Sequence record: MN850601.1
Direction: 5' to 3' (one strand)
Source: Escherichia phage inny
Length of the DNA stretch: 64,000 nucleotides
The position numbers and the translations under genes were made by a program. Every line of letters begins with the position of its first letter. Positions within the stretch are counted from its first letter, which is position 1. The notes under the pieces were generated by a model that made no database searches, had not been told where the DNA came from, and saw nothing but the letters and a program-made list of their open reading frames with translations. Shown here piece by piece: positions 9,441-26,466 of this stretch.

Positions 9441-9447
9441 TTTCTCC

Positions 9448-9768
9448 TTAACAAGTAATATTGGGAGTAACAATTGGATTAACAATTGGAGTAATAGGGT
9501 ACGTAAACCAAGGGCTTCCAATTTCCCAAGGATAATAAGGTCTACGAGGATCGTATGGAGGAGTTACTTCAGGCTTTTTCCAAATCTCCGCTAATTGTTT
9601 CTTCCATTTATCCCTTGCTGTCTCATTATCTTCATCCAACTGTTCATCATTATCTTTTATTTCTGGTTTTGGAAATAAAAGCTCTTTGACTAATTCAACA
9701 TCTTCCGTCTCAATAGTAGTTTCTTTCGTAAGTTCTCCTACTGTTTCTTTAATTGTGATTTTATACAT
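9448..9768 (-). CDS. hypothetical proline-rich protein (106 aa)
   Basis: ORF track; C-terminal PxxP-rich segment. Confidence 0.4.
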   Translation of the reverse strand: MYKITIKETVGELTKETTIETEDVELVKELLFPKPEIKDNDEQLDEDNETARDKWKKQLAEIWKKPEVTPPYDPRRPYYPWEIGSPWFTYPITPIVNPIVTPNITC

Positions 9769-10514
9769 TAGTCCTCCTCTAAAGTAGAATAAAATTGTAA
9801 CGTATTTGAATCATCAAAATATGCAAAGGTTAAATTACCATTGAAGCAAGATCCTGTGTCCATATATACCCTATTACTGCTAATCACAGGTTTAGGAACA
9901 TAAGAATGCCCGTGAAATACATAATCTACTCCTGAAACCCTAGGAAGAAGAATCCCTTCAAGTGCGCAATCTATCATATCACGATCCCACATTAAAGATT
10001 CTGTGAATTGAGAAACTTGCTCTTTATTCATATTCAAACAAAATGGCAAAACTTCTGTCACTGGTAAATGTTCCAAAACTGAAGGATACCCACCGTGAAT
10101 AAAGCCTAGTTTCATATTACGATAATTGACAACAAGTACAACAGGTAAATCTTCTAGCATCAAAGCAAGAGCAGTTGCACCCTCTTCTCCACACTCGTCT
10201 AGAACTGTATGGCCTCCGTTCTGAAACCAACATTCGTAATATCGTCTATCACCTTCTAGCAACCCTTTAATCATCATATCTTCATGATTTCCACGAATAC
10301 CATAACGATTTAGCTTTCTGGTGAATTCAACAACACAACGAAAATTCTGCTTGCCGCGATCTGTAAGATCTCCTAAAGATACAACAACATCTTGATCTCG
10401 GATACCTAAAGTATTAACACCTTTCTGGTACAAATCAAAGCAACCATGTAAATCACCAATAATAAACAGGTCTTGATCATCTTTTACACTAATTTCTTGA
10501 TATACTAACATCAA
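9768..10514 (-). CDS. Ser/Thr protein phosphatase (calcineurin-like metallophosphoesterase, PPP family)
   Basis: GDLHGCFD, GDLTDRG, GNHEDMM signature motifs (GDxHG / GDxxDRG / GNHE). Confidence 0.75.
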   Translation of the reverse strand: MMLVYQEISVKDDQDLFIIGDLHGCFDLYQKGVNTLGIRDQDVVVSLGDLTDRGKQNFRCVVEFTRKLNRYGIRGNHEDMMIKGLLEGDRRYYECWFQNGGHTVLDECGEEGATALALMLEDLPVVLVVNYRNMKLGFIHGGYPSVLEHLPVTEVLPFCLNMNKEQVSQFTESLMWDRDMIDCALEGILLPRVSGVDYVFHGHSYVPKPVISSNRVYMDTGSCFNGNLTFAYFDDSNTLQFYSTLEED

Positions 10515-10837
10515 CTCTCCTCAAAATCCATAAGTATAAAGATATTAACTTTACCTTCTATATTATGTTCTACAACAAGATCTGCAAATTCTTTGTAGGC
10601 TTTTTCTTCTATTTGTTCAATGTGAGACGCTACATCTTTGTATATAGCGTCACCATCTACTTTAACAAGGAGGAATAGAGATCTTACTTCAATCTCTTTA
10701 TTTTTACGGGGTAGAAAATCGACGGCTTCTTGTATACGCCAGCCGAGATACCCTGGAGTCCTTTGAATATCCTCCAAATGACTTTCTAAGATTTCCCTTC
10801 CTTTGTCTATTAAAGCCTGTTCTGTCGTTATTTTCAT
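10511..10837 (-). CDS. hypothetical protein (108 aa)
   Basis: ORF track. Confidence 0.45.
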   Translation of the reverse strand: MKITTEQALIDKGREILESHLEDIQRTPGYLGWRIQEAVDFLPRKNKEIEVRSLFLLVKVDGDAIYKDVASHIEQIEEKAYKEFADLVVEHNIEGKVNIFILMDFEES

Positions 10838-10847
10838 CCCCTTCTCC

Positions 10848-11420
10848 TTAATGTGTTAATGAAACTGCGTAGCTAAACACAGGTTCAGATATTACATCGG
10901 CTACAGTAATAAAAACGTCTTCGTCTTGAGTTGTTTCTACACGACATACAGTTACACCATTCACCACGAATTCAACGCAATGTGGAATATCTTCACAAAC
11001 GAAGGTAGTGTAAGTAACACCCAAAGCATCATACAAAGATTTAACAGTGTTTGCAAGTGCCGCAGTTTCTTCTTTTTCTGAGACAATGAATGCTGTAACA
11101 ACAAGATTGTTTGCATAGTTTAGACTGTCCTCTATAGCCAATGATTTACAAGGTAGTAATGCAAAATATTTACCTGGTTTAATCAGACCTGCTTCCCATT
11201 GATTCAAAATTGCCTGGGATGGTTTAGTAATATAAAACAGATTTTCACTTGGGTTATCAATATTACTTCTGGCGATACAACGTGAAGGATTATTAATATC
11301 AAATACATGATCAAAATCTACACAAACAGGTAAACTGAAAGGTGTGAATTTTTTACCTAATAATCCTATGGCTGATAATATGTTTGCTGTGCTTATCTTC
11401 CCGTTAAAAGCTAAACGCAT
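10848..11420 (-). CDS. hypothetical protein (190 aa)
   Basis: ORF track. Confidence 0.45.
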   Translation of the reverse strand: MRLAFNGKISTANILSAIGLLGKKFTPFSLPVCVDFDHVFDINNPSRCIARSNIDNPSENLFYITKPSQAILNQWEAGLIKPGKYFALLPCKSLAIEDSLNYANNLVVTAFIVSEKEETAALANTVKSLYDALGVTYTTFVCEDIPHCVEFVVNGVTVCRVETTQDEDVFITVADVISEPVFSYAVSLTH

Positions 11421-11431
11421 ATTTAACTCCT

Positions 11432-11635
11432 TTAACTAGCAACCGTAACTTCCGAACTTTCTTCTTTCGTACTGTCTACGATATGCCTGGTGGCAATATA
11501 CGAGACTTGCCAGTTACCATCTGGTGTAGTCTCAATAAGTACCCTATCTACTTCGAGAAAATGCAAAAATTCAACCATCGCTCGCTTCGATAGGAATTGT
11601 TTTTTAACAGTCTCCTCAAAAGATTGAACTGCCAT
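11432..11635 (-). CDS. hypothetical protein (67 aa)
   Basis: ORF track. Confidence 0.4.
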   Translation of the reverse strand: MAVQSFEETVKKQFLSKRAMVEFLHFLEVDRVLIETTPDGNWQVSYIATRHIVDSTKEESSEVTVAS

Positions 11636-11644
11636 GTTTCCTCC

Positions 11645-12307
11645 TTATTTAATATTCAATTTTGCACAAAGACGTTGTACCGCTTTGGCATCGAACAAAC
11701 TCCCACGAATAGTTCTCTTTCCTGATTCATTCAGATGTTTTGCAATCGTCATATATGGCGTTTTACAAGCTCTGTATGCAACTAAAGAATCTTTTAAAGA
11801 AAGCGCAAACTCTTTTGAGCGTTTTGCTTCTTCCGTTTTCGTATAATCTGTTCTTTTGTATTTAGGGTTTGCTGCACCAAGAAGCGTTCCCTTCGCTTTT
11901 GCTACTTTAAGGCTCTTCTTAACACGATCAGATATTGCACGAGCCTCTTCTTCTGCCAGAACTGCTAAAATATTTATTATCATATTTTCAGCGGAGGGCA
12001 TAGTTGCTATTCGTACATTAATCATCTCTAACAAGGTTGCAACAGAAGCTGTGTTACGTCCAAGACGGTCAACCTTAGCAACAACAAGTGTAGCACCTGT
12101 TTCTTTGCAAAGATTAACAGCTTTTACAAGCTCTCTACGTTGCTTCCAATCGCCTTTACCCGAATAAAACTCTGCAAAGCTACCTACAATAGTATAATTT
12201 TCTTGTGAATCCAGGAAGCGTTGGATATCTGCTTCCTGTGATTCTATACCATACTGGTTGCCTTGTTGTTTCTTCTTAGAAAGTCGATGATACAGTACAA
12301 ACTTCAT
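11645..12307 (-). CDS. serine recombinase (resolvase/invertase family)
   Basis: N-terminal catalytic Ser in YHRLSKKKQ, ATLVVAKVDRLGRN resolvase motif, C-terminal HTH-like region. Confidence 0.7.
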   Translation of the reverse strand: MKFVLYHRLSKKKQQGNQYGIESQEADIQRFLDSQENYTIVGSFAEFYSGKGDWKQRRELVKAVNLCKETGATLVVAKVDRLGRNTASVATLLEMINVRIATMPSAENMIINILAVLAEEEARAISDRVKKSLKVAKAKGTLLGAANPKYKRTDYTKTEEAKRSKEFALSLKDSLVAYRACKTPYMTIAKHLNESGKRTIRGSLFDAKAVQRLCAKLNIK

Positions 12308-12364
12308 AATACCCTCCTGTTCTGTTACAGGAAGTATGCACTACCTTAACGTTAAAGTCAACAG

Positions 12365-12580
12365 TTAAGTAGTGGTAATATCATCTTCTTGAATATCAGG
12401 ATCAACTTCTGCAAAGATAGCTTCTACAGGAATTTCTTCACCTGCTATTCTAGAAAGAAGCACTGAACCAATAGCTTTTGCGTGTTCTTCGGATTCCGCA
12501 TAAACATTAGTCCCTGTGTCTTTTTTCTTAGTTTCGTTAAAATATACCAGATAGTAATTGTATGCCATTATTCTTCCCAA
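12365..12580 (-). CDS. hypothetical protein (71 aa)
   Basis: ORF track. Confidence 0.4.
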   Translation of the reverse strand: MGRIMAYNYYLVYFNETKKKDTGTNVYAESEEHAKAIGSVLLSRIAGEEIPVEAIFAEVDPDIQEDDITTT

Positions 12581-12819
12581 TCGTTGTTACGAGCATTTTC
12601 AAGAACCTTGACAACTTCTGCATACTCTACAGCTAAACCAGCACACACTTCAGCTTGTTTTGCAATTGCTTGTTTAAAGAACATAGCGATTGCAACACTC
12701 TGTGTTGTGTGAATGTTATCTGCTTTAGTTGATACGTGAAGATCAAAATCTTCTTCATCAAAGGTGAGTTCCATAGTAACAATAAATTTCTCGGTCATAA
12801 AAATGCTCCTCTTAAACAA
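12568..12819 (-). CDS. hypothetical protein (83 aa)
   Basis: ORF track. Confidence 0.4.
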   Translation of the reverse strand: MFKRSIFMTEKFIVTMELTFDEEDFDLHVSTKADNIHTTQSVAIAMFFKQAIAKQAEVCAGLAVEYAEVVKVLENARNNDWEE

Positions 12820-13321
12820 AATAGAAAGGTTGAGTTAAACCCAGCCTGTTTTTTGGGTCGTAGACGTACCAAGCATATGCTGTCTTATCAGTACCACCTG
12901 CAACAAAAGATGGTCGTTCAGAAAGAACAATCAAATTTGTTGGTGGATTCTGTTTATGGAATTCCCTTCGTTTAATAGACTCTAGGAAACCAAGACGCAA
13001 CAAGTATATGCAAACGTCTGCTTCTTTTAAGCTCTTTTGCAAGAACTCAAGTGCAAGTTTGAATGGGGGATTTGTGATTATAATATCCGGCTTAGTATGC
13101 CATTCATGGTTAAAATAATCTTTCCCTTCTTCTAACTCACAATATTCTGATCCTTCTGGAAAATGTTGATAAATTGCAGCAGCAGCGCCTTTACACGGTT
13201 CTGCAAAAATAAAACCTTCTTCTTTAAGGTTATTAAAATCTATTACACTAAATAATGCATTTATACATTTTTGTGGAGTAGGATAGTAATCAGTTGGTGG
13301 ACGATCATACTTATTTGCCAC
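12812..13321 (-). CDS. DNA N6-adenine methyltransferase (Dam-like, NPPF motif)
   Basis: DYYPTPQ near N-terminus and catalytic NPPF (motif IV [DN]PP[YF]). Confidence 0.6.
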   Translation of the reverse strand: MANKYDRPPTDYYPTPQKCINALFSVIDFNNLKEEGFIFAEPCKGAAAAIYQHFPEGSEYCELEEGKDYFNHEWHTKPDIIITNPPFKLALEFLQKSLKEADVCIYLLRLGFLESIKRREFHKQNPPTNLIVLSERPSFVAGGTDKTAYAWYVYDPKNRLGLTQPFYFV

Positions 13322-13739
13322 TACTTAAAATCTCCTCTTTTGTGATTTCAGGGTCTTCTTCAAAAACCATAATATCTCTTAAGAACGTTAATTCTTCCAT
13401 AGATACTGGTATTGTATCTTCTTCTGTTTTTCGTTTACATAAATCGTCAAGAAAGTTTTTAAAGTTTTCTGACAAATCGTAAAATTTCAACAGTTGATAA
13501 TCACAGGAGGAGATCCTATCTAGTTCTAACATTCTTTCTAAGATATTTTCTGTGTTGCCATACAGCACACGAACTTCTCCGAAAGGGTTGACTGAATATT
13601 GTGAAGTTCTGAACCATCCCTTTTTAGATACAGTGTAACGCTGTTCTGCTAAACTTTCAATAAAATTTTTAGCTCTTTTACAGTTTTGTTCTAAAGAGTA
13701 GTAGGCTTTTTCTACAAAGGTTACAGGTACTGGTAACAT
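13311..13739 (-). CDS. hypothetical protein (142 aa)
   Basis: ORF track. Confidence 0.45.
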   Translation of the reverse strand: MLPVPVTFVEKAYYSLEQNCKRAKNFIESLAEQRYTVSKKGWFRTSQYSVNPFGEVRVLYGNTENILERMLELDRISSCDYQLLKFYDLSENFKNFLDDLCKRKTEEDTIPVSMEELTFLRDIMVFEEDPEITKEEILSSGK

Positions 13740-13747
13740 ATCTCCTC

Positions 13748-13772
13748 CTAATAAACCCCCTTGAGGGGGTTT
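13748..13772 (-). terminator. rho-independent terminator
   Basis: hairpin AAACCCCC-TTGA-GGGGGTTT followed on - strand by TTTATTAG. Confidence 0.55.
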
Positions 13773-13780
13773 GTGTTAGA

Positions 13781-14434
13781 TTAATTATCAGAGGATACTT
13801 TATCAAGTTTTTCAGAGACTGTCAATACTTTTTCTTGTGATTCTTTCATTTCTGCTAAAATACTTTCAGCTTCATCACTATCAGGATCACCAGTCAACAG
13901 CATACTAATTAGTTGCTCCTTGCTGAAGTTCAGAATATCTTCCGCTGTTAGTTCCAGTTGTTCTTCGATCTCTTCAATAAAAGTTTCACCACCGGAAAAA
14001 GCATCTCGTAGTTTTGCAACTTCCATCGCTTCTTCTGGAGTTGCCCCTGCATCTAAAGCTGCTAAAGCAAAATCTGCCCCACTACCAACAGCATAATAAT
14101 CTTCAGTTAAAGGATATGCTCGCGTTGGATTATTACCCTCGTGCATATAAATTTTACCGTCTGGGTGAACAACCAATGCCACAAACTCTTCATCTTCTTT
14201 ATCAGGATCTGACTGGATCACCAAACCTGGGATTGTCTCTTGTGCTGCTTGGCATTGTAAGTTTTGTTCGAACCAAGAAAAGAAAGTCAGGATAGAAGAC
14301 AGACGTCCTGCACCACCAACAAGGTAATCCCCAATTTTACGCACTTTCTTGAAATTTAAAGTGTCTACACGACTACCTACTGTTACTTTACCATCAGATA
14401 GAATTTTGTTATGTGTTGCAATAATTGTTGTCAT
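13781..14434 (-). CDS. HslV-like (proteasome beta/ClpQ family) Ntn-hydrolase peptidase with acidic C-terminal extension
   Basis: MTTIIATHNK (Thr right after Met, as HslV TTIV), KKVRKIGD, GGAG, AVGSGADFALAA (HslV AIGSGG); about 60 aa acidic tail. Confidence 0.65.
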   Translation of the reverse strand: MTTIIATHNKILSDGKVTVGSRVDTLNFKKVRKIGDYLVGGAGRLSSILTFFSWFEQNLQCQAAQETIPGLVIQSDPDKEDEEFVALVVHPDGKIYMHEGNNPTRAYPLTEDYYAVGSGADFALAALDAGATPEEAMEVAKLRDAFSGGETFIEEIEEQLELTAEDILNFSKEQLISMLLTGDPDSDEAESILAEMKESQEKVLTVSEKLDKVSSDN

Positions 14435-14925
14435 TGTACTTCCTCCTGTAGTGTTTTAAGGACTGCTTTACCACCGCTTACATATTTACGGAGGTAATCA
14501 ATAGCTCTTAGTGTTTCTTTATCCACAAGAATTTTATTAGTTCTTGTCAATGGATGATTGAGTAAGTCACTGCAATTTCTTACTAACATAGATTTCTTGT
14601 GAAAGATACTGCTAAGAAAAAGAAGTTTAGAATCTTCTTCATCAATCAGGAGTAATTCTGAATTAGACCCAGCTACATTTATTATACACTCAAACAAGCC
14701 TTCTTGACTATCAGATAATTCCTGGTAATATTTAGTTAGCCAATCCTCTCCTTTTAACCAACTAAAAAACATCTGAACTTTTTGCAAAGTTGTCATGTTC
14801 TCTAAACGAAGAGATATTTCTTTTTCAATCTTGTCAATATAAATCTGTCTAAACTCATTCGGCTTAACTAAGCCAGCTTGATAGCATTCATCAATACCAT
14901 TGCGATCAATCTCAATTAGCGTCAT
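14431..14925 (-). CDS. hypothetical protein (164 aa), translationally coupled to HslV-like gene
   Basis: ORF track; 4-nt overlap with downstream HslV-like gene. Confidence 0.45.
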   Translation of the reverse strand: MTLIEIDRNGIDECYQAGLVKPNEFRQIYIDKIEKEISLRLENMTTLQKVQMFFSWLKGEDWLTKYYQELSDSQEGLFECIINVAGSNSELLLIDEEDSKLLFLSSIFHKKSMLVRNCSDLLNHPLTRTNKILVDKETLRAIDYLRKYVSGGKAVLKTLQEEVQ

Positions 14926-14961
14926 TTAACCTCCATAATAGGCATCCTTGCCTTGTAATTA

Positions 14962-15714
14962 TTAATATACTTCCGTGATGAACTGAGACAAACGGGAACG
15001 TTGGTTATCAGCAGTTGTCATTTCAACATAACCAATAAAATCTACAATAGCTTCCCTTTCTCCTTCTTCGTTAATAGGAACAACACGATCTAACAAATCA
15101 CCTAACCCGTTAGCTCTTCGTTTAATTGCATATGTTTGATTAACATCGCCCATAATGACAATACGTGTATTAAGACCTGCTCGCTCAAGGAGAAGTTTTA
15201 CTGTATTTGGTGACATAAGTTGAACTTCATCAATAAGAATAATGCTGTTATCCCACGTAGCACCTAGTGCATAGTTTGGAATATTAAGTTCAATTTTGCC
15301 ACTTGCAATATCGTTTTCCAATTTATTTGCAGTCATAAACTGTTGGAAAATTCTCTTAGTTGATTCGTAGTGTGCTGCTAGTTTATCAGTCTTATCTCCA
15401 GATAAGAAACCAATTTGATCATCACCTACTTCTGTCGGGTTTTTAAGGAAAATCAACTTTCTGAAATCACCAGCTTTAAGCATTTGCAATGCTTTCCACA
15501 GTGCTGTTGTCGTTTTTCCTGTTCCTGCTGGGGCATTAACAATGGTTAAATCATTCCAAACCATGCTTCTTACAATAGCTTCTTGATTCCCAACAGGGGT
15601 AAATTCATCAAGACGGTAATCATCATTTCCTACTGCTTTAGCCGCATAACGACTGGCACGTTTGTCATCATTGGCTGCTGATTGACGACGAGCCTTTGCG
15701 GTTTTATTTCCCAT
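14962..15714 (-). CDS. phoH: PhoH-like ATPase
   Basis: Walker A NAPAGTGKTT; overall PhoH-family pattern. Confidence 0.85.
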   Translation of the reverse strand: MGNKTAKARRQSAANDDKRASRYAAKAVGNDDYRLDEFTPVGNQEAIVRSMVWNDLTIVNAPAGTGKTTTALWKALQMLKAGDFRKLIFLKNPTEVGDDQIGFLSGDKTDKLAAHYESTKRIFQQFMTANKLENDIASGKIELNIPNYALGATWDNSIILIDEVQLMSPNTVKLLLERAGLNTRIVIMGDVNQTYAIKRRANGLGDLLDRVVPINEEGEREAIVDFIGYVEMTTADNQRSRLSQFITEVY

Positions 15715-15725
15715 GTTTGCACTCC

Positions 15726-15748
15726 TTATAAAAGGGGCTTTCGCCCCT
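15726..15748 (-). terminator. rho-independent terminator (AGGGGCTTTCGCCCCT, copy 2 of 3)
   Basis: GC hairpin followed on - strand by TTTTATA. Confidence 0.6.
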
Positions 15749-15752
15749 TTGT

Positions 15753-16253
15753 TTAGTTATAAGCGTCTAATGTTCCAGTTTTAAGTACCTGAATTACACG
15801 CTCTGCGCGATTAGGCGTTTGGCGATACCATTTACTTTTACGTAAATTTATAGAGGCTTGAGTATAATATGAATTACTCACTAAAGTCAAGCTATTTTTG
15901 AAAGATTCTGCACCTTTCAATCCCATTTGAAATACCATATTGATAATAGCCATTTTACGATTAGGACTTACTTTATCGTAAATAGGAGATAATATGGTAC
16001 TTGAATGGATTTGTTGTATCGCTTTCTTTACGTCACTTTCAAAGATTCTTCTAGCTTCCGCTTCAGTAATAACTCCATTGGTTTTTCTACCTACTAAGTT
16101 ATCAAGAATGCGTATAGCTTCTGCTTTATCTTTGCGTTTTGTCAGAAGGTGTCCAATACCAACTGTCCAATACCCTTCGGTATCAGGATATACAGTTAGC
16201 TTTAGTCCTTCATCAAAACGTAACATATCAAACACATCAACTACTTTAGCCAT
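15753..16253 (-). CDS. e: T4-type lysozyme (endolysin, GH24)
   Basis: FDMLRFDEGLKLTVYPDTEGYWTVGIGHL closely matches T4 lysozyme N-terminus including catalytic Glu/Asp; C-terminal SRWYNQTPNRA-like. Confidence 0.92.
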   Translation of the reverse strand: MAKVVDVFDMLRFDEGLKLTVYPDTEGYWTVGIGHLLTKRKDKAEAIRILDNLVGRKTNGVITEAEARRIFESDVKKAIQQIHSSTILSPIYDKVSPNRKMAIINMVFQMGLKGAESFKNSLTLVSNSYYTQASINLRKSKWYRQTPNRAERVIQVLKTGTLDAYN

Positions 16254-16413
16254 GTTTTCCTTATATCAGTCGCCCTCCCCATGATCTAGCTCTTGAAACA
16301 GTAGGTGTTCAGGAGACATTTCACGTTTAGGCTTCGTCTTTTTAGTTTGGGACTTAAGCTCTGTTGCCAAAGCACGAGAAAAGATCTTACGTTTCTGTTT
16401 ACCTTTCATATTG

Positions 16414-16680
16414 TTACTCCGCAATCTGAGCCATGAATTCACGTAGTTCAGAAAAACCTCCTACGTGGGTTAGCTGTTCACCATCTTCCACAAAAATCTG
16501 AGGAAATGTGCGTGGTAGAACACCTGTTTTCTCTAAAACCAGATTCTGAATCTGATCTAAAGAATAGTCTTCATCTAAGGTAAGATATTTAAAATCCTGT
16601 TCACGCTGTTCTAGTAGAATCTTAGCGTTAGTGCAGAAAGGACAATTTGGTTTACCGTAGATAATAAAATTCATTTTCAC
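16414..16680 (-). CDS. nrdC: glutaredoxin (NrdC-like, CPFC active site)
   Basis: FIIYGKPNCPFCTNAKILL and GGFSELREF resemble T4 NrdC glutaredoxin. Confidence 0.8.
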   Translation of the reverse strand: MKMNFIIYGKPNCPFCTNAKILLEQREQDFKYLTLDEDYSLDQIQNLVLEKTGVLPRTFPQIFVEDGEQLTHVGGFSELREFMAQIAE

Positions 16681-17507
16681 TCCTTGTTTAAAAGTATAGT
16701 TAAAGTTCTTACAATACCGCTATCAACACTTCGCGGATTTAAAGTAGGATCTGTTTTTAAATAAGATGTTGCTGGTCTGACTGCTTTGGAATTATAGGTT
16801 GAAGCAGATACAGGATTAACTGTAACAGATAAATCTATAACAAGAAATATCTTTCGTGCAAAATCATACCAAGAAATATAATCTGCACCTGCATAGTGTA
16901 CAACTTTACTATTTACACCATCTTTTACAAGTTTAAAAATTGTTTCTGCAAGATCAGGTGCATAAGTAGGACATGACAAATGATCACATACTACATTAAA
17001 TTCTTTTTGACCACCGTTGTAGCGTTCCAACATAGTTTTCAAAAAGTTATGTCCAAATTCACTATAAACAGAAGCTGTTCTGATAATAAGTGCTGTAGGA
17101 CAAACTGTTTGTACTAAAGTTTCACCTAATTGTTTACTGTAACCGTAGGTGTTCAAGGGGTTTGTTTTACTATCTTCTGTGCCAGCAACATGCCCATCAA
17201 AAACATAGTCTGTTGAAATATGTACAAACTGTATCAGTAAATCATTACATGCTTTGGCAATGTTTGTTGCACCGTATGCATTAACATTTATACAGGTGTT
17301 AACATCTTCTTCAGCTTTATCTACTGCCGTGTAAGCCGCACAATTCACAACAACATCAGGCACATGCTGTACAAGACTATTCATAACATCTTTAAAGTTG
17401 GTAATGTCTACATCACTTGCTTCAATCAAAATAACATCTTCGGGCGCAACTTTTGCCAAAGACTGTCCTAATTGACCTTTTGAACCAAAGATTAAAAATT
17501 TTGTCAA
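16677..17507 (-). CDS. rmlD: dTDP-4-dehydrorhamnose reductase
   Basis: N-terminal LIFGSKGQLGQSL Rossmann motif, VDKAE, STDYVFDG as in RmlD/RfbD. Confidence 0.8.
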   Translation of the reverse strand: MTKFLIFGSKGQLGQSLAKVAPEDVILIEASDVDITNFKDVMNSLVQHVPDVVVNCAAYTAVDKAEEDVNTCINVNAYGATNIAKACNDLLIQFVHISTDYVFDGHVAGTEDSKTNPLNTYGYSKQLGETLVQTVCPTALIIRTASVYSEFGHNFLKTMLERYNGGQKEFNVVCDHLSCPTYAPDLAETIFKLVKDGVNSKVVHYAGADYISWYDFARKIFLVIDLSVTVNPVSASTYNSKAVRPATSYLKTDPTLNPRSVDSGIVRTLTILLNKE

Positions 17508-18058
17508 AATATGATCTCCTTTAGTGTTTTGGCTTGCTGATCTTTTTGTGACAAGATAGGTTTAAAATTAATATCATTAAAGATTAAATCAAAACCCCAA
17601 TCAATATTGATATCTGGATCATTCCACGCAAGACTACACTCTGAAGTCGGATCGTAATATTCTGTACATTTATATTCAAAATCAGCAATGTCACTAATCA
17701 CAACAAAGCCATGAGCGAAACCAGGAGGAATCCAAAATTGTGTTTTATTCTTTTCAGATAAGAGAACACCTACCCATTCTCCAAATGTTGGACTACCAAC
17801 CCTAATATCTACAGCAACATCATAAACTTCACCACGAACACAACGTACTAACTTCCCTTGTGGGTTTTTCTTTTGAAAATGAAGCCCACGTAGAACTCCT
17901 CGAATAGAACGTGAATGGTTATCTTGGACAAAGTTTTGTTTACCTATGTATTGATCATATAAAGCCTGATTAAAACTTTCTAAGAAAAAACCACGTTCAT
18001 CTCCGTAAACGTCAGGTTGAATGATCAACAAATCTTCGATTTTTGTTGCTTGAATCAT
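17504..18058 (-). CDS. rmlC: dTDP-4-dehydrorhamnose 3,5-epimerase
   Basis: GDERGFFLESF signature of RmlC cupin epimerases. Confidence 0.85.
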   Translation of the reverse strand: MIQATKIEDLLIIQPDVYGDERGFFLESFNQALYDQYIGKQNFVQDNHSRSIRGVLRGLHFQKKNPQGKLVRCVRGEVYDVAVDIRVGSPTFGEWVGVLLSEKNKTQFWIPPGFAHGFVVISDIADFEYKCTEYYDPTSECSLAWNDPDINIDWGFDLIFNDINFKPILSQKDQQAKTLKEIIF

Positions 18059-18070
18059 TTAATTCCCCCT

Positions 18071-18940
18071 TTATTTTAATTTAAGTAAATACTTACCGTA
18101 GTCTGTTTTACTTAAAACCTCTCCAGAACTTTTTACAGAGTCTAAAGTAATCCATTCATTTTTAAAAGCAATCTCTTCCAGGCATGCAACCTTCATACCT
18201 TGTTGCTTTTCTATTGCATGAACAAATTGAGATGCTTCCATAAGACTTTCATGTGTTCCTGTATCCAGCCAAGTGAAACCTCTTCCTAGTTTACAGACAC
18301 GTAAAGCCTTTTCTTTCCAGTACATCTCATTTATATCTGTAATCTCTAACTCCCCTCTAGCAGAAGGTTTAACGCTTTTAGCTTTCTGTACAACAGAATT
18401 ATCGTAAAAGTACAAACCTGTGATTGCATAGTTGCTTTTTGGTGCTTTTGGTTTTTCTTCAATACTCACCACTGTACCTTCAGAATCAAACTCAACAACA
18501 CCAAATCTTTCAGGATCATTTACGTGATACCCAAAAATATTAGCTCCACCATTCTTTTCAATATGTTCTTTAGCAGAATCTAAAATGCTACCAAAACTCT
18601 GACCAAAGAATAAATTATCACCTAGCACAAGTGCTACAGAATCTTCACCAATAAAGTTCTCACCAATAATAAACGCTTCTGCTAAACCTCTTGGGCTATC
18701 CTGTATTGCATACTGTAGGGAAATACCAAAAGAAGAACCATCACCTAGAAGATTTACAAAATTAATTTGATCTTCTGGTGTTGTAATTATTAGTATTTCC
18801 CTAATTCCAGAAAGCATTAGGACAGAGAGTGGATAATAAATCATAGGCTTATCATAAATTGGTAATAGTTGTTTACTAACCCCTTTAGTAACTGGGTAAA
18901 GTCTTGTTCCACTACCACCTGCTAAGATAATACCTTTCAT
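18071..18940 (-). CDS. rmlA: glucose-1-phosphate thymidylyltransferase
   Basis: [39 protein letters not shown] nearly identical in pattern to enterobacterial RfbA/RmlA. Confidence 0.9.
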
Positions 18941-18948
18941 ACTCCTCC

Positions 18949-19938
18949 TTAAACTTTATTTTCCCACCACTCTTTGTTATCTACATACCAATCAACGGTT
19001 GAATAAAGTTTTTCTTCAAATGTGCCTTTAGCTTTCCACCCTAATTCCTTTTCAATCTTATAAGGATTCACTTCGTATCTTAAATCATGTCCAGGTCTAT
19101 CTGTAACCATTTCAATGAGGCTACAAGCATCTGTTTCAGATGGATACACCGCATCCATATAATCACAAATCATATAGATTACATCAATATTAGTTCTAGG
19201 GTTTCTGCTCCCAATATTATATGTTTCTCCAGATTTGCCTTTAGTTACTACTAGGTGTAATGCTTCTGCGTGATCGTCAACGTATAACCAATCTCTTACT
19301 TGAAGACCATTGCCATAAACAGGGATTGGTTTATGCATCAAGATATTTGTTATCGTTTTAGGTATTAGTTTTTCTGGATGATGATATGCTCCAAAATTAT
19401 TTGAACAATTTGTTATAACTGTCGGAATACCATAAGTACGATGCCATGCTCTTACCAAATGATCGCTTGCAGCTTTAGATGCAGCATATGGACTACTTGG
19501 TTTATAAGGATTCTGTTCTGTAAACGGATAATCCCCTTCTTCCATATCACCATACACTTCATCTGTTGAAATATGATGGAACATTTTAAGATTTGATTTA
19601 TCTCCCATTAAACGAACAGCCTCTAGAAGATTAAATGTTCCAACAATATTTGAATTTATAAAAACACTCGGTGATGCTATTGAATTATCTACGTGACTCT
19701 CTGCTGCAAGATGCATTATATAATCTGGATTAACATCTGCCACAATCTTAGCAGTTAACTGCGCATTTGTCAAGTCAACACGACAAAACTTTACATTAGG
19801 TGTTTCTGATAAATTTCTAGGGTCTGAAGCGTAACCCCATTTATCTATAACGTAAATATCATTCTTAGTATTTTTAGCCAGGAAACGAACTACTGCACTT
19901 CCAATAAAGCCTAAACCACCTGTTACTAAGTATTTCAT
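18949..19938 (-). CDS. rmlB: dTDP-glucose 4,6-dehydratase
   Basis: [21 protein letters not shown]-binding motif; SDR-type YxxxK region; size 329 aa as RmlB. Confidence 0.9.
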
Positions 19939-20135
19939 TTAGTCTCCTTCCAATTATTCCCTTCAGTAAAAATAATACCTTCATAAAACAACCATCTGGA
20001 ACCTTTTTCAACAGGAACAGGAATCTCTTCTTCAGTAAAGTTATAAACCTCTCTAGCATCTTCTAAAAGTGATGCAAATGTTTTTGGACTTACTGTTACG
20101 CGAGGAGCATTGATCAGTTGATCTAGCATCATTCT
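19935..20135 (-). CDS. hypothetical protein (about 66 aa)
   Basis: ORF track 19935-20225 trimmed to ATGATG preceded by AAGGAGG RBS. Confidence 0.4.
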   Translation of the reverse strand, partial: RMMLDQLINAPRVTVSPKTFASLLEDAREVYNFTEEEIPVPVEKGSRWLFYEGIIFTEGNNWKETK

Positions 20136-20145
20136 ACTATCCTCC

Positions 20146-20472
20146 TTACCAAACGTGTTGAGAAATAATAGTTTCCGTTTCAATGTTATATTTTTCAAGA
20201 AGTTGTGCATAGGCTTCTTTTGCATTTTTATTTAGTTGCTCAAGATCTACAGCTATACTTCCTTCGCCACCTTCTAAATAAATGCCATATATGCAATAAT
20301 ATTCATCAGCATCATAGAAAGGAGAGATACGGCTTAAATCAAGACCTTCTTGTAAGAACCAATTAAAATCTCCATCAAATTCTTCTTCAATTCTAGGATC
20401 TTCTCCTACAGCCTCTTCCCATTTATTAAAAGGTGCACCCTGTAACATACGCCATGCAATATCAACCCCCAC
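20146..20472 (-). CDS. hypothetical acidic protein (108 aa)
   Basis: ORF track; GTG start preceded by GAGGAGGAAG. Confidence 0.4.
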   Translation of the reverse strand: MGVDIAWRMLQGAPFNKWEEAVGEDPRIEEEFDGDFNWFLQEGLDLSRISPFYDADEYYCIYGIYLEGGEGSIAVDLEQLNKNAKEAYAQLLEKYNIETETIISQHVW

Positions 20473-20608
20473 TATCTTCCTCCTCTTCTTTTTCTTCTGT
20501 ATGAACGAAACCTAAGCCGTTACAATTCCAACAAGGAATAAATTGTTCCATACTAACAATAAAATTCCCAGTACCCCCGCAGATAGGACAAATACTTACA
20601 TCATCCAT
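20462..20608 (-). CDS. small zinc-finger protein (48 aa; CPICGG...CWNCNG)
   Basis: Hand-translated; two CxxC pairs; ATG 2 nt after upstream stop; below ORF-track cutoff. Confidence 0.35.
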   Translation of the reverse strand: MDDVSICPICGGTGNFIVSMEQFIPCWNCNGLGFVHTEEKEEEEDSGG

Positions 20609-20610
20609 TA

Positions 20611-20817
20611 TTAAAGCTCCTCAATCTTTTCTAACATCTGTTTTAACTCATTCTCTGTTAACAGAATTTCTGTGATACCATCATAAGTTTCTACCATCAG
20701 AGTAAAACATTTTTCCCCATCTGAACACACAAAAGCGCCACCTTCATCTTCTGTTAAGTCAGAATTAATATCTACATCAACAAAATCAATCATCTTTTTC
20801 TCCTTTGATAATTTCAA
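20611..20817 (-). CDS. hypothetical acidic protein (68 aa)
   Basis: ORF track. Confidence 0.4.
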   Translation of the reverse strand: MKLSKEKKMIDFVDVDINSDLTEDEGGAFVCSDGEKCFTLMVETYDGITEILLTENELKQMLEKIEEL

Positions 20818-21004
20818 ACTTGGCTACACCATTAACTATAATATGACCGCAAGACAGAACTCCTAGCCAATGATCACCATTCTTTTTTAAACGTTTACCG
20901 TAAACATCACAGAAACCATTCTGCAATTCGGAAGCCTCGTAAGAGGCTCCCTTTTCGAAAACGTCTTTGAAGTCAGAAATTAATCCAACACAAAGTAGTT
21001 TCAT
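20786..21004 (-). CDS. hypothetical protein (72 aa)
   Basis: ORF track; start overlaps nrdB stop. Confidence 0.4.
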   Translation of the reverse strand: MKLLCVGLISDFKDVFEKGASYEASELQNGFCDVYGKRLKKNGDHWLGVLSCGHIIVNGVAKFEIIKGEKDD

Positions 21005-22089
21005 TAAAAATCTAACTCCTCATCGTCACTTACATCTTTATTTGCTGAATTCAGTTTGTAAGCTGTAATTTGGATCTCCTGTGCTGCTGCTTGAATTTGA
21101 TCTGGATTTAACCAAACATCCATCCAAGGCAGTGGACTTTTCTTCGGTGCACGGAATTTGTGTTTCATTTTCAGTCTGCGATAGATAGGCGCGGCATTGA
21201 AGTAAACCCAAAGTTTGAACAACTCTGCGTTACCACCAACGATAACCCTTCCTTCACTAAACAGATAGTCACACCAATCTTCCTCTTGTCCAACTACCGT
21301 ATCAAGAATTTCTGTCAGAACGTCGATATTGTCTTCGTATACTTTTCTCCAAACAGGATCTTTCAGCAGTGCATCAATAATAGCATAATCCATTTTAACG
21401 TGCAATAGTTCATCCAACATAATTTTTTGAATGAGTTTAGCTGCACCTACAAACAATTGCTGCTCTGCTAAGGCAAATGTTGCAGCAAAAGAGGAGATGA
21501 ACTGAATACCTTCCAGACCGATAAGTGCAATCATTCCTTTCAGGATTAGTAGACGAAGGTTATCATCCTTCTCAATCAGACCTAGAGCATATTTATGTCC
21601 TGCCTCTGCCAGATCACTCATTATCTCTTCAACTATACCCATCCTCTGGAAGATTCTTTCATTCTCCATGATCTGATCGATAACTTCATTTGGATTAGGG
21701 ATACACTGACGAATAATTTCAGAATATGTCAAAGCGTGTAAAACTTCCATTTCTGATTGCTTCATCATCATTGCACATGCTTCGTTGTTGCTTAAAAATG
21801 GTGCAAACAAAGTGATGATTGATTTAGCAAGTGAATCATTTTCCCATTGGAAAGATAGGTTTTTGATCATAACATCATAGTTGCTTTTAGAACAAGCTAC
21901 GAAATCTTTTCGTGTCTGATCTAAGTTTACTTCGTTTTCATCCCAATCTTGCTGTTTTTGTAGTTTGTACAGACGATGCATTTCTGGGTATGTTACGTTA
22001 ATAGAATCAAAAATACCTAACTGTTCTCCCAAAAATACAGGGTAGAAACCTTCTTTGTAAGTGTCGTTGTATAAATTAATTGCTGCCAT
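21004..22089 (-). CDS. nrdB: ribonucleotide reductase class Ia beta subunit
   Basis: Size and ferritin-like pattern; paired downstream of NrdA; EGIQFISSFAATFALAEQ helix typical of R2. Confidence 0.85.
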   Translation of the reverse strand: MAAINLYNDTYKEGFYPVFLGEQLGIFDSINVTYPEMHRLYKLQKQQDWDENEVNLDQTRKDFVACSKSNYDVMIKNLSFQWENDSLAKSIITLFAPFLSNNEACAMMMKQSEMEVLHALTYSEIIRQCIPNPNEVIDQIMENERIFQRMGIVEEIMSDLAEAGHKYALGLIEKDDNLRLLILKGMIALIGLEGIQFISSFAATFALAEQQLFVGAAKLIQKIMLDELLHVKMDYAIIDALLKDPVWRKVYEDNIDVLTEILDTVVGQEEDWCDYLFSEGRVIVGGNAELFKLWVYFNAAPIYRRLKMKHKFRAPKKSPLPWMDVWLNPDQIQAAAQEIQITAYKLNSANKDVSDDEELDF

Positions 22090-22452: not shown

Positions 22453-24714
22453 TTACATCTTACAAGCCTCACAACCGGATTCTTCATCCTCTTGAGCGAG
22501 TGAGGTTGCTGATTTTGTTCGACTATTTAGATAGTACAAAGATTTACCACCAAGTTTTGCAAACTGAAGGATATATTGCATTTCTGATTTAATGGATAAA
22601 CGACCACCTTCCATCTTAGAATAGTCAATCCACTTGTCACATGATGCACCTTGATCTAAGAATTTAGTCAATAGTCCATATGCTTCAGCCATATCTTTAT
22701 CTGGCGTATCCCAAGCCGATTGGTAAATATCTTTTAGTTTATCGTAATCTGGCACAATAAACAAGACATTACCTTTTTGGCTTTGTTTATAAACTATAGT
22801 ATCACGTACAGGATACACAGAGTTAGTCGTATTACTTACAAGACTACTAGACTCATTCGGAGCAATAGCTGCTAATACACTATTTCGGATACCACCTTGT
22901 GCAATTATATCTTGTCGTAAACCTTCCCAATCCATTTTAAGTTTAAAATTGCCAATATCGTCTACAGCTTTAGCGTAGGTATCAATAGGCAACCATCCTT
23001 CAGGCCATTTGGTTTTATGCATCCATTCTGCATTACCTTTCTCTTTTGCCAAACGAAGAGAAGCTCTTGCTAACCAGTAATAATGTCTTTCTGCTAATTC
23101 GTGAATTAGTTTTTTGCCGTAAGGATCTGAATAAGTAACAAAATTACTTGCCAGATAATGTGCCAGGTTTGTAATACCCACACCGATAGACCTACGTGCT
23201 TTAGCAGTGATTTCGTTATGTTTAAACGGATACTGCATTGTTTCAATAACATTATCAATAGTTAGAACGGTATAATATGCAACATCTTCATATTCTTCTG
23301 GTGTAACGCGACCAGCTACAATAGAAGACAGGAAGCATAATGCCAATTCTTGATCTTCTGTATTCTCACCTGTGAAAAGATCAGTCATACTGTGAAATGC
23401 TTTCGTAGGTAAGAAAATTTCTTGGCACAAGTTTGACTGATAAATAACATCCTTAAACGGAGTATGCTTATTAGCATTATCCGCAAAGAACATATAAATA
23501 CGTCCTGTCTCTGCTCTTTGTGTAATAATTTCTGCCAGAAGATCTCGTGCTTTTACAAACTTCTTCTTAATTCGTTTGCGACTAACTTTTTCATATACTT
23601 CTTCAAACTCTTCCTCGCTTTTATAAAGCGCCTCATAGAGTTCTGGTGCTTCGTCATAACTGACTAGCATCCAATCTTTACCTTTTGCTGCACGGCGCAG
23701 GAAAGCATTGTTTACTACAATAGAGTAATCAAGTTTATCTACTCGTTTTTCACTAACAGTAGTTGGGTTTTTCAAACGTACCAGATCTTCAAAATCAGGT
23801 TCTAATATTGTAAACGTTACTGTTGCACTTCCACCACGACTTGCTTGTTTTGATGCTCCAACACTTGTTTCCATCCATTTCAGATATGGTAAAAGACCAC
23901 CGTGAACGATACGGTTGTTCTTAACACCTTGTCCTGTAGCACGGGTTTGGAGGTTAACACCAATACCTGCATTATTCAATGTATACTCATGAGCAAGATA
24001 GTTAGCAATTGCTAAAGATTCTGCTGTATCGTCTGCTCTAAACAGACAACAAGAAGCACTACCTTTAATCTTAGTACGCAAAGTTGTTAAATAAGGTGAT
24101 GGTAAATTAATCTTAAGATCACTTACGTAGGTATATAGACGTTTAATGTCTTCTACTCTGCGATCTTTTGGTTGGATTTCCATTACCTTCATTGCTACAC
24201 CAATGAATAAAAATTGTGGTGATTCAAAAACCACATCATTGATCGCATCTTTCACAAGATACTTATCAACCATCTGGCGCAGTACGGAATAACCATAAGT
24301 TAGGTTTTTATCATGATTGATAATTTTACCAATCTCAATAATTTCTTCTTCTGTATAATCCATTTTCCCCCAATAGCCTTTACTTACAGACATATTGTAG
24401 AAATCCAGGAGGGAGGGGATATTGTGATATCCCCCATGAGCCTGTTTATAGATCATACCAAGAAGTAACCGACCTGCCATATCACTATATGCCTGATCTT
24501 TCTTATCAATACATGCTGCTATCATAGCTTTATGTAAATCACGAGTAGGCACACCGTCGTAACAACGTTTAACAGCTTCGAGTTCAATTTCAGACCAATT
24601 TAATTTACCAGCAGCAAACTCTGACCATTTACGAAGTTTTTCTGGATTAAATTCTTCTTTCTTGCCGTTTGTTTTTGTTACATAACGGATAGATTTGCTT
24701 AGATACTGAGTCAC
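22453..24714 (-). CDS. nrdA: ribonucleotide reductase class Ia alpha subunit
   Basis: 753 aa; conserved blocks NxCxE-like SNLCQEI, C-terminal CEACKM redox cysteines, GGIRNS as in NrdA. Confidence 0.9.
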   Translation of the reverse strand: MTQYLSKSIRYVTKTNGKKEEFNPEKLRKWSEFAAGKLNWSEIELEAVKRCYDGVPTRDLHKAMIAACIDKKDQAYSDMAGRLLLGMIYKQAHGGYHNIPSLLDFYNMSVSKGYWGKMDYTEEEIIEIGKIINHDKNLTYGYSVLRQMVDKYLVKDAINDVVFESPQFLFIGVAMKVMEIQPKDRRVEDIKRLYTYVSDLKINLPSPYLTTLRTKIKGSASCCLFRADDTAESLAIANYLAHEYTLNNAGIGVNLQTRATGQGVKNNRIVHGGLLPYLKWMETSVGASKQASRGGSATVTFTILEPDFEDLVRLKNPTTVSEKRVDKLDYSIVVNNAFLRRAAKGKDWMLVSYDEAPELYEALYKSEEEFEEVYEKVSRKRIKKKFVKARDLLAEIITQRAETGRIYMFFADNANKHTPFKDVIYQSNLCQEIFLPTKAFHSMTDLFTGENTEDQELALCFLSSIVAGRVTPEEYEDVAYYTVLTIDNVIETMQYPFKHNEITAKARRSIGVGITNLAHYLASNFVTYSDPYGKKLIHELAERHYYWLARASLRLAKEKGNAEWMHKTKWPEGWLPIDTYAKAVDDIGNFKLKMDWEGLRQDIIAQGGIRNSVLAAIAPNESSSLVSNTTNSVYPVRDTIVYKQSQKGNVLFIVPDYDKLKDIYQSAWDTPDKDMAEAYGLLTKFLDQGASCDKWIDYSKMEGGRLSIKSEMQYILQFAKLGGKSLYYLNSRTKSATSLAQEDEESGCEACKM

Positions 24715-25494: not shown

Positions 25495-26466
25495 TCACCA
25501 TTTTGTATGGTTAGTCAAAAGTTGACGATGTTGAATCCAACCACAGAAGTTTCCACTCCACAAACGATGTTTACGATCCATGTGTGTAATACCTTCTTCC
25601 CAAGAAGTAGGGAACGGAGGAATATTAATACCACCTTTCTGTTGTTTTAATCCTGACAAATCCATTTCTTTCATTGGTGTTGCCTGGTGTTCAAACGGAG
25701 ATGCATGTACCTTTTGTCCAGACAGCAAACGAGAATAGATATCCAATGCTTTATCTTTAGTATCATTCAATTTACGATAACTTACCTGAGCGCAACAAGA
25801 AGCTGAAATAGCTTTTGCTTCCTCTTCTGTCAACATTTTCTCGTTGGAGAAGGTTTCACCCAAGAAATAACGGATCATACCAGTTTCTGGATCTCGATCA
25901 CGATTAACGTAAGGTGTATGCCATTCCCCTGGGAAAAGAAGATATGGTTCAGAAGATTCATACAGTTTTTTAATTTCTTTAGCAAGAGCCTCAATAGTAG
26001 GATCTGCATCAGCATCTACACGCAACCACAAGAAGTTTTCTAGCTCTGTAGTGGTTACTACAGTCTTCATACGCTGGAATGGTTCTAGTAGGCGGTTTGC
26101 AACCTGTTTATGATAACCAGCAAGGGCAAACTCTTCTGCAAAACGTGCAGCACTTAGTGCAGCCAAGTCCCACCATTCTTTTGCAGTGTAACCTGCATCA
26201 ATCAGGGCATCGTGATCTGTGCCTTTATCTTGCATACCTGGTTGGTTAGCACCAAAACGATAAGGACGTGCTGGAGATTGCCGTACCATTTCAATTAGAG
26301 TTTTAACAGGGATAGCTCGACTTGATGCGGCATTACGAGAAAACAAACGATGCGTCATCAATTCAGAGTGAATGATTCGAGGATATTCAAGTTCAAAGGT
26401 AACAATATCCTTACCTTCAGATGTTTGAGAGTGTGCAATAATTTTTGCTGAAATAGAGTTTGTCAT
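25495..26466 (-). CDS. ThyX-like flavin-dependent thymidylate synthase family protein
   Basis: ELMTHRLFSRNAASSRAIP resembles ThyX RHRxxSxxxxSxR motif (first Arg replaced by Thr); sits in dNTP module. Confidence 0.55.
   Translation of the reverse strand: MTNSISAKIIAHSQTSEGKDIVTFELEYPRIIHSELMTHRLFSRNAASSRAIPVKTLIEMVRQSPARPYRFGANQPGMQDKGTDHDALIDAGYTAKEWWDLAALSAARFAEEFALAGYHKQVANRLLEPFQRMKTVVTTTELENFLWLRVDADADPTIEALAKEIKKLYESSEPYLLFPGEWHTPYVNRDRDPETGMIRYFLGETFSNEKMLTEEEAKAISASCCAQVSYRKLNDTKDKALDIYSRLLSGQKVHASPFEHQATPMKEMDLSGLKQQKGGINIPPFPTSWEEGITHMDRKHRLWSGNFCGWIQHRQLLTNHTKW

Follow-up and report, generated by a model that had tools for sequence, protein, structure and literature searches.

The rml genes of Escherichia phage inny

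The stretch of DNA analysed here (the window) comprises 64,000 nucleotides of Escherichia phage inny (sequence record MN850601.1) and carries a complete set of genes for the synthesis of deoxythymidine diphosphate (dTDP)-L-rhamnose, intact and in the order rmlB-rmlA-rmlC-rmlD on the minus strand, followed by a glutaredoxin gene (grx; PF00462, 9e-12) and a T4-type lysozyme gene (PF00959, 6e-12). An original prediction made from the sequence letters had described just this arrangement, and the exact coordinates, equivalog scores and motifs given below bear it out. The cassette and its glutaredoxin gene are as follows.

18949 to 19938, minus strand: rmlB, dTDP-glucose 4,6-dehydratase, 329 amino acids (TIGR01181 and alignment with 1G1A)
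18071 to 18940, minus strand: rmlA, glucose-1-phosphate thymidylyltransferase, 289 amino acids (TIGR01207 and alignment with 1IIM)
17504 to 18058, minus strand: rmlC, dTDP-4-dehydrorhamnose 3,5-epimerase, 184 amino acids, with the motif GDERGFF (TIGR01221 and alignment with 1DZR)
16677 to 17507, minus strand: rmlD, dTDP-4-dehydrorhamnose reductase, 276 amino acids, with a TTG start overlapping the rmlC stop (TIGR01214)
16414 to 16680, minus strand: grx, glutaredoxin, with a CPFC active site (PF00462, 9e-12)

The four Rml proteins match their Pfam and NCBIfam families far beyond chance. Pfam E-values are 7e-82 for RmlB, 2e-77 for RmlA, 2e-72 for RmlC and 1e-73 for RmlD, and each protein also exceeds the NCBIfam equivalog cut-off for its enzyme: RmlB scores 441.9 bits on TIGR01181 (cut-off 365.1), RmlA 473.2 on TIGR01207 (360.65), RmlC 260.4 on TIGR01221 (155.75) and RmlD 254.1 on TIGR01214 (224.05). 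RmlA aligns over residues 2-288 with Salmonella RmlA (1IIM) and has the nucleotide-binding signature GGxGTRL as GGSGTRL, and RmlB, aligned with S. enterica RmlB (1G1A), has GGLGFIG (GxxGxxG), TDE and the YxxxK motif as YAASK. In RmlC, aligned with 1DZR, four distant members of the subfamily all keep His60, Lys69 and Tyr129, and in RmlD the motifs STDY and YGYSK, which hold the Thr/Tyr/Lys triad, are invariant in alignments that include distant subfamily orthologues.

The genes are closely packed. Three junctions, between the upstream open reading frame (ORF) and rmlB, between rmlC and rmlD, and between rmlD and grx, are 4-nt overlaps of start and stop, and the two short gaps (8 nt between rmlB and rmlA, 12 nt between rmlA and rmlC) each hold a Shine-Dalgarno sequence, AGGAGG after the rmlB stop and a GGGGG-type ribosome-binding site after the rmlA stop. 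The likelier start of grx is the ATG at 16674, which is preceded by an AAGGAG ribosome-binding site. These junctions indicate that rmlBACD-grx is packed as one predicted translational unit. In rmlBACD, 33 synonymous and 12 non-synonymous positions distinguish the window from phage EmilieFrey (proportions of synonymous and non-synonymous differences, pS 0.048 and pN 0.0047; pN/pS 0.098), a clear sign of purifying selection on these genes. The four rml genes are intact, translationally coupled and in the pathway order B-A-C-D.

The cassette region is 99.9% identical to that of Escherichia phage vB_EcoM_ESCO8 and 99.8% to that of phage arall, and at 95-99.9% identity at least 80% of it is found in 53 phage records, almost all from Justusliebigvirus. 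Collinearity with EmilieFrey (positions 99339-146666 and then 1-16670 of that record) extends over the entire window, at 98.6% identity and with no window-specific insert of more than 50 bp relative to it, and by these nucleotide matches the window is a Justusliebigvirus genome (phi92-like, Stephanstirmvirinae).

The operon is already known, because its four genes are annotated as dTDP-rhamnose enzymes in more than 50 GenBank records (e.g. those of ESCO8, arall and EmilieFrey) and because it was discussed by Olsen et al. 2020 (PMC7552041), where DNA hypermodification was proposed, and by Maffei et al. 2021 (PMC8594841), where phi92-like phages are called 'exceptionally susceptible' to restriction-modification systems. 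The phi92-like/Phapecoctavirus operon published in these two papers occupies this very locus, with a nucleotide identity of 98.6-99.9%. This is textbook biochemistry at a known place, and the presence of the operon adds nothing new; what is added here to the published locus is a link to a cluster of glycosyltransferase (GT) genes, the dispensability of rmlA and rmlB, the point of insertion and evidence against a recent origin from the host. In the literature searched we found no studies of these transferases, nor any of glycosylated virions or DNA in the Stephanstirmvirinae.

Transferase genes and their link to the cassette

The original prediction had noted that no glycosyltransferase was obvious beside the operon and had proposed a search of the rest of the genome. 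The observation holds for the entire 64-kb window, in which we found no glycosyltransferase gene, but full genomes contain four GT-like genes about 70 kb from the cassette. In the complete EmilieFrey genome these are consecutive (44552-47728) and annotated as two 'putative disaccharide synthase' and two 'putative glycosyltransferase' genes, and the cluster adjoins genes for a primase/helicase and a DNA polymerase, an adjacency that is kept in distant relatives. We refer to the products as GT1 to GT4.

Two of the genes encode GT-B paralogues that are 40% identical to each other, match Pfam Glyco_trans_1_2 and Glyco_trans_1_4 weakly and belong to PHROG 7162. The paralogue that was modelled (predicted local distance difference test, pLDDT, 94.7) has a compact GT-B fold of GT4 type, with PglA, GlgM, BshA, MshA, GtfC, SdgB and TarM as fold neighbours. 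GT3 belongs to the GT-A enzymes and carries a DxD motif (an invariant FDDD), and its structure model (pLDDT 88.4) has generic fold neighbours, namely STIV A197, WrtF and the Listeria rhamnosyltransferase RmlT. The product of the fourth gene is called a transferase by PHROG only. None of the four has a hydrophobic or membrane segment, the maximum Kyte-Doolittle value over 19 residues being at most 1.21.

The transferase genes keep company with the rml genes. RmlC and the fourth transferase-like gene have equal phyletic counts in the phage collection, with 54 records at 95% identity or above and 77 at 60-80%. Among records named for Escherichia, Klebsiella, 'Campylobacter', Justusliebigvirus and Phapecoctavirus, RmlC is present in 105, 8, 5, 3 and 3, and the fourth gene in 105, 9, 5, 3 and 3; the distribution of GT3 resembles both, and across about 131 genomes the GT-like genes co-occur with rmlC. 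Vequintavirus rV5, for its part, has neither the rml nor the GT set. The five records with 'Campylobacter phage' names (host C. jejuni; MG065639, MG065645, MG065656, MG065689 and MG065650) are either 98.6% identical to Justusliebigvirus or Phapecoctavirus-like, and are probably mislabelled or contaminant genomes.

The first two steps of the pathway are less constant. Phage ESCO37 has been reported to lack rmlA and rmlB (PMC10269720), and its sequence (10565-12563) shows that just these two are cleanly deleted, while rmlC, rmlD, grx and the four GT genes are all retained (66-76% identity). ESCO37 is not unique in this, since RmlA is found in 87 Escherichia-phage records and RmlC in 105, so that about 18 have RmlC and no RmlA. 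Escherichia coli K-12 carries rffG and rffH, and all of the 5,426 complete E. coli genomes compared match the rml region. RffG and RffH, which belong to the enterobacterial common antigen (ECA) cluster and are always present in E. coli, make dTDP-4-keto-6-deoxyglucose; a supply of this 4-keto intermediate by the host enzymes explains why RmlC and RmlD would be the steps that the phage has to provide.

A further arrangement is seen in a distant metagenomic relative, a 135-kb Logan contig (SRR24146891), in which a gene for a nucleotide-diphosphate-sugar 4,6-dehydratase-like short-chain dehydrogenase/reductase (SDR) directly precedes one GT-A and one GT-B gene (2667-5319), followed by a small ORF, primase/helicase and PolA. 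The SDR scores 171 bits on TIGR01181, below the cut-off of 365.1, and the locus may represent a different sugar pathway that feeds the same set of transferases.

Taken with the gene distributions, these arrangements suggest that the cassette probably serves the four phage transferases encoded outside the window. Following the established Rml pathway, RmlA would join glucose-1-phosphate and dTTP, RmlB would convert the product to dTDP-4-keto-6-deoxy-D-glucose, RmlC would epimerise C3 and C5, and RmlD would reduce C4 to give dTDP-L-rhamnose or, less likely, the C4 epimer with 6-deoxy-L-talose. From their co-occurrence, dTDP-L-rhamnose would be the donor for the four soluble GT-like proteins, RmlC and RmlD would be the indispensable phage contribution, and RmlA and RmlB could be replaced by host RffH and RffG. 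We favour, with moderate confidence, a functional donor pathway that feeds the phage's own transferases and has a target other than bulk DNA.

Several observations weigh against this interpretation. The rml and GT genes lie about 70 kb apart and are linked by co-occurrence within one subfamily, which shared ancestry by itself could produce. The fourth protein has no matches among Pfam families or PDB sequences. The fold searches with GT1 and GT3 (PDB, BFVD), confident as to the predicted fold, are too generic to name an acceptor. RmlD keeps its catalytic triad and scores only modestly above its cut-off (254.1 against 224.05 bits), so that the C4 stereochemistry of the product, which cannot be read from the sequence, is uncertain. 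A role in DNA is possible in view of the position of the genes among those for replication and DNA metabolism and of a weak match of GT3 to a DNA-modifying family (see below).

The GT cluster has as its direct neighbour, at 48477-56318 of EmilieFrey, a conserved tellurite-resistance-like cluster of genes for TerD, a vWA-TerF-like protein, TelA and TerC, with a SleB-like wall hydrolase, an arrangement that recurs in a relative (sequence L086, 1201-8941), with genes for a macrodomain protein, a phosphoribosyltransferase and a HAD-family protein slightly beyond. In Vequintavirus rV5 a transferase of another kind is annotated, the unrelated gp010 (5703-6602; 'putative alpha 1-3 fucosyltransferase'), and glycosyl transfer of some form may be common in the wider phage group.

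Candidate acceptors

The original prediction left the acceptor of the rhamnose open, and the candidates are ranked here by probability. Virion proteins and envelope glycans lead. Structural proteins of the virion have a reasonable claim that is short of an even chance, host envelope or lipid-linked glycans a somewhat smaller one, DNA bases at specific sites are improbable, and what is left falls to other targets or to none. Bulk DNA is an unlikely acceptor, and the least likely of the candidates, because the phages are sensitive to restriction and no TET or hydroxymethylase gene was found in the Pfam scans described below. The question raised is why a therapeutically used subfamily of broad-host-range coliphages keeps a four-step pathway and four transferases under purifying selection. 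A target on the virion would bear on the immunogenicity and pharmacokinetics of therapeutic phages, one in the host envelope would amount to surface conversion by a lytic phage, and one in DNA would make for a base modification of a new class. Several Stephanstirmvirinae phages are in therapy cocktails, and genetic handles are at hand in the natural variants without rmlA and rmlB, in host rffGH mutants, which can be constructed, and in deletion of the GT cluster.

The relatives of two of the transferases hint at virion proteins. In other phage groups the only relatives of GT3 are right-arm transferases of Cheoctovirus mycobacteriophages (e.g. MadMen gp106; 25-27% identity), and the fourth gene has as its sole outside relatives a portion of a transferase encoded among the head genes of Cellulophaga phages. 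Against this hint, no similarity to Che8 gp108-110 was detected in BLASTP comparisons of GT3 with gp109 and gp110 and of GT1 with gp108 (E of at least 0.2). A passage in PMC11256854 (citing Freeman 2023) reports that capsid glycosylation has been shown for mycobacteriophage Che8, a member of this Cheoctovirus group; gp108-110 are the Che8 transferases that glycosylate its capsid and tail tube. The Che8-type O-glycosylation resembles the present system in using several soluble phage GTs encoded away from the structural genes; it differs in that mycobacteriophages carry no sugar-nucleotide pathway and in that virion glycosylation by phi92-like phages is a candidate function. We tentatively propose that rmlBACD and the four transferases put a rhamnose-containing O-glycan on virion proteins of the Stephanstirmvirinae (phi92-like and phAPEC8-like), which is possible and still doubtful. 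If true, virion glycosylation would be seen for the first time in phages of Gram-negative bacteria, no earlier phage system would have had its own donor-sugar pathway, and antibody recognition and phage stability could be affected. The tail sheath protein (57493-58899, plus strand) has a Ser/Asn-rich end (…NRTANSQNSNSSTVSS) with a possible O-glycosylation site. A scan of the structural proteins of the window for Ser/Thr-rich C-termini yielded the sheath C-terminus NSQNSNSSTVSS, which we rejected as evidence of glycosylation.

Giant viruses offer another comparison. Mimivirus has a two-enzyme UDP-L-rhamnose pathway, glycosylates its fibrils and infects a eukaryotic host. As in the phage, a virus-encoded donor pathway for a 6-deoxyhexose is paired with virus-encoded transferases, and a Bandra megavirus transferase is among the best viral structural matches of GT3 (template modelling score, TM, 0.68); the giant-virus route, however, is UDP-based, requires two enzymes and has no sequence-level relationship to the phage cassette.

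The published alternative (Olsen et al. 2020, PMC7552041) is DNA hypermodification, with rhamnose moved to a hydroxylated or hydroxymethylated base, in the manner of glucose in T4, maybe only at the sites of the C5-cytosine methyltransferase. The cassette does lie in a nucleotide-metabolism block, genes for primase/helicase and DNA polymerase border the GT cluster, in distant relatives too, and a C5-cytosine methylase is encoded at 6615-7604. GT3 has a weak match to the TAGT family PF20691 (6.8e-5; 23.3 bits against a gathering score of 27.5) and another to the T-even beta-glucosyl-HMC (hydroxymethylcytosine) alpha-glucosyltransferase PHROG; the former, however, is below the Pfam threshold and covers residues 16-75, the generic nucleotide-binding part of GT-A enzymes. 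Neither T4 alpha- or beta-glucosyltransferase nor a T-even TAGT is among the top 50 structural matches in the fold searches with GT1 and GT3. Pfam scans of the 40 unannotated EmilieFrey proteins of at least 130 amino acids gave no TET/JBP protein, 2-oxoglutarate (2OG) oxygenase or ThyA-like/dNMP hydroxymethylase; the same scans gave Ter-family, CapR, NT5C-like and MazG-like proteins instead, and ThyX is the only thymidylate synthase. Sensitivity of phi92-like phages to type I-III restriction (PMC8594841) excludes genome-wide base replacement. The T4 glucosylation and TET-TAGT systems likewise have phage GTs among nucleotide-metabolism genes, and a C5-cytosine methylase is present here, but these scans found no hydroxymethylase or TET, a dTDP-sugar would take the place of a UDP-sugar as donor, the phages are sensitive to restriction and the match of GT3 to TAGT is below threshold. 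We know of no dTDP-sugar-dependent DNA modification, and give hypermodification only a slim chance.

Remodelling of the host envelope deserves more weight, though we consider it rather doubtful. Here rhamnose units would be added to lipid-linked intermediates or to those of lipopolysaccharide (LPS), ECA or O-antigen, and would block superinfection or the adsorption of progeny to debris. Rhamnose is typical of O-antigen and LPS, these phages bind several surface glycans with multiple enzymatic fibres, the GT1 fold neighbours PglA and TarM act on undecaprenyl-linked or teichoic-acid acceptors, and the GT cluster is flanked by the conserved TerC/TelA/TerD/TerF-like membrane-stress cluster and the SleB-like wall hydrolase. 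Set against this, GT1 to GT4 lack a hydrophobic segment, neither a flippase nor a polyprenyl-phosphate or membrane-spanning transferase was seen, the time for surface turnover is short in a strictly lytic cycle, and rough K-12 isolation hosts support growth with no obvious need for the function. Serotype-converting systems are known from temperate phages, which also counts against it. The components of Gtr serotype conversion (the flippase GtrA, the bactoprenol transferase GtrB and GtrC) are not annotated in EmilieFrey, the scans of which covered proteins of at least 130 amino acids. A proposed connection between the pathway and ECA as receptor was dropped, as these phages were later assigned to the NGR glycan.

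Metabolic interference would dispense with an acceptor: the cassette would deplete dTDP-4-keto-6-deoxyglucose or dTTP, or dTDP-rhamnose would act as a feedback inhibitor of host RmlA, shutting down ECA or O-antigen synthesis, and the GTs would be unrelated. It would fit the constant retention of rmlC and rmlD, which divert the ECA intermediate, and the co-transcription of the cassette with genes for dTTP supply; it leaves unexplained the one-to-one co-occurrence with four transferase genes and the dehydratase-like gene beside the GT cluster of the distant relative, and most members keep rmlA and rmlB, which adds flux rather than just diverting it. We regard it as very unlikely, and prefer the donor pathway feeding the phage's own transferases.

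Origin of the cassette and the surrounding genes

The original prediction took the closeness of RmlA to enterobacterial RfbA as a sign of recent acquisition from the host, a conclusion that the comparisons do not bear out. The identity of RmlA is 65.5% with Salmonella RmlA and 66.7% with E. coli RffH, and that of RmlB is 53.4% with K-12 RffG. In comparisons with PDB chains RmlA scores 419.6 bits with 1IIM, 410.9 with 4HO0, 403.6 with 1LVW and 389.5 with 1FXO; the last three, which score at the level of 1IIM, we take to come from unrelated organisms, 4HO0 presumably being RmlA of a Gram-positive bacterium and 1LVW that of an archaeon. Near-equal scores across unrelated organisms mean that the similarity of RmlA is that of normal enzyme conservation. 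At the DNA level, the best matches among the 5,426 E. coli genomes have 65-67% identity over less than half of the region.

RmlD is the most divergent of the four proteins, and its best relatives in 185,579 species genomes, from Alphaproteobacteria, SAR92, Akkermansia and Bacteroidota, are 44% identical; no enterobacterial genome is among the top 80 RmlD relatives in that set. Among PDB chains RmlD scores higher with 3SC6 and 1VL0, which we take to be Bacillus and Clostridium enzymes, than with 1KBZ, presumably the Salmonella enzyme. The G+C content of each rml gene (0.344-0.348, compared with 0.37 for the window) matches that of the phage.

The phage and bacterial rml/rfb systems (E. coli/Salmonella rfbBDAC, RffG/RffH) belong at equivalog level to the same four families of enzymes and have the same catalytic residues. 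The enterobacterial gene order is B-D-A-C; that of the phage is B-A-C-D, a difference consistent with the DNA matches to E. coli genomes. Phage RmlB and RmlA are only 53-67% identical to their enterobacterial homologues and RmlD at most 44% to the cellular homologues found, and, unlike the bacterial loci, the phage cassette is embedded in a ribonucleotide-reductase module with no rhamnosyltransferase, Wzx or Wzy gene adjacent to it.

Along the minus strand the order is thyX-nrdA-nrdB-small ORFs-rmlB-rmlA-rmlC-rmlD-grx-small ORF-endolysin-PhoH, and the genes surrounding the cassette are these.

27050 to 27613, minus strand: thymidine kinase (PF00265), with an NT5C-like gene between it and thyX
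25495 to 26466, minus strand: thyX (PF02511), thymidylate synthase of the flavin-dependent type, not a ThyA-like hydroxymethylase
22453 to 24714, minus strand: nrdA (PF02867), which with nrdB encodes the class Ia ribonucleotide reductase; a small ORF lies between the two
21004 to 22089, minus strand: nrdB (PF00268), part, like nrdA, of one gene block with the cassette and upstream of it
19935 to 21004, minus strand: co-oriented small ORFs between nrdB and rmlB, the last overlapping the rmlB start by 4 nt
15753 to 16253, minus strand: T4-type endolysin/lysozyme (PF00959, 6e-12), annotated as endolysin in EmilieFrey
14962 to 15714, minus strand: PhoH, downstream of the endolysin gene

The thyX/thymidine kinase block upstream of the cassette is a dTMP/dTTP supply. 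Two of the small ORFs between nrdB and rmlB were compared with Pfam, and neither has a match.

The whole order from thyX to PhoH is kept in Klebsiella phage 05F01, whose RmlC and RmlD are 51% and 41% identical to those of the window, and in Pseudomonas phage PsgM04F, and nrdA/nrdB synteny is conserved in 05F01, PsgM04F, ESCO37 and rV5. In the Vequintavirus rV5 thyX, nrdA, nrdB and grx are contiguous; tblastn searches of its genome detected NrdB, Grx and PhoH and found no homologue of the Rml proteins or of GT1 to GT4, all eight genes being absent. The contiguity of nrdB and grx in the absence of Rml argues that the cassette is an old insertion between nrdB and its glutaredoxin gene, the latter being the last gene of the ribonucleotide reductase module, split from nrdB by the cassette, and not a member of the rml set. 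The cassette is ancestral and vertically inherited in the Stephanstirmvirinae, an insertion in the thymidylate/ribonucleotide-reductase block of the phage. Recent capture from an enterobacterium is rejected on the RmlA scores, the DNA identity of at most 67%, the RmlD identity of at most 44%, the G+C content and the subfamily-wide synteny.

The original prediction had also raised the possibility that the segment is host DNA in a chimeric assembly or that its genes are frameshifted or not expressed. The first is excluded by the presence of the same region in 53 independently sequenced phage genomes, and intact ORFs, coupled junctions and a pN/pS of 0.098 contradict the second. Given in addition a G+C content equal to that of the phage, a DNA identity of at most 67% to every E. 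coli genome and the synteny across the subfamily, an artefact or decaying cargo, be it chimeric host DNA or an unexpressed and recently captured moron, has a negligible probability.

A promoter and terminator scan of 12-27 kb gave counts equal to the shuffled expectation and no operon boundary apart from two hairpins. These are GC-rich and perfect, lie at 15731-15750 in the gap between the PhoH and endolysin genes and at 13756-13769 between an HslV-like gene and the next gene, form on both strands and are the sole terminator-like sites near the cassette. The HslV/proteasome-like subunit gene (13781-14434, minus strand; weak match to PF00227) is beside PhoH in all relatives examined.

Elsewhere in the window, the C5-cytosine DNA methylase gene (6615-7604, minus strand; PF00145, 1.7e-43) is accompanied by an ORF at 12812-13321 (minus strand) that relatives' annotation names an N6-adenine methyltransferase and that has an NPPF motif and no Pfam match at 1e-4. 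A serine recombinase/resolvase gene (11645-12307, minus strand; PF00239, 8e-22) is present in this strictly lytic myophage. A Sir2-family protein is encoded at 4471-5283 (minus strand), and genes that relatives' annotation names phosphoribosyl pyrophosphate (PRPP) synthetase and nicotinamide phosphoribosyltransferase lie at 40000-40893 and 40965-42698 (plus strand); together the three look like a set for NAD+ salvage and counter-defence. An array of 15 tRNA genes at 43446-46196 (plus strand) includes two tRNA-Met(cat), two Leu and two Ser genes.

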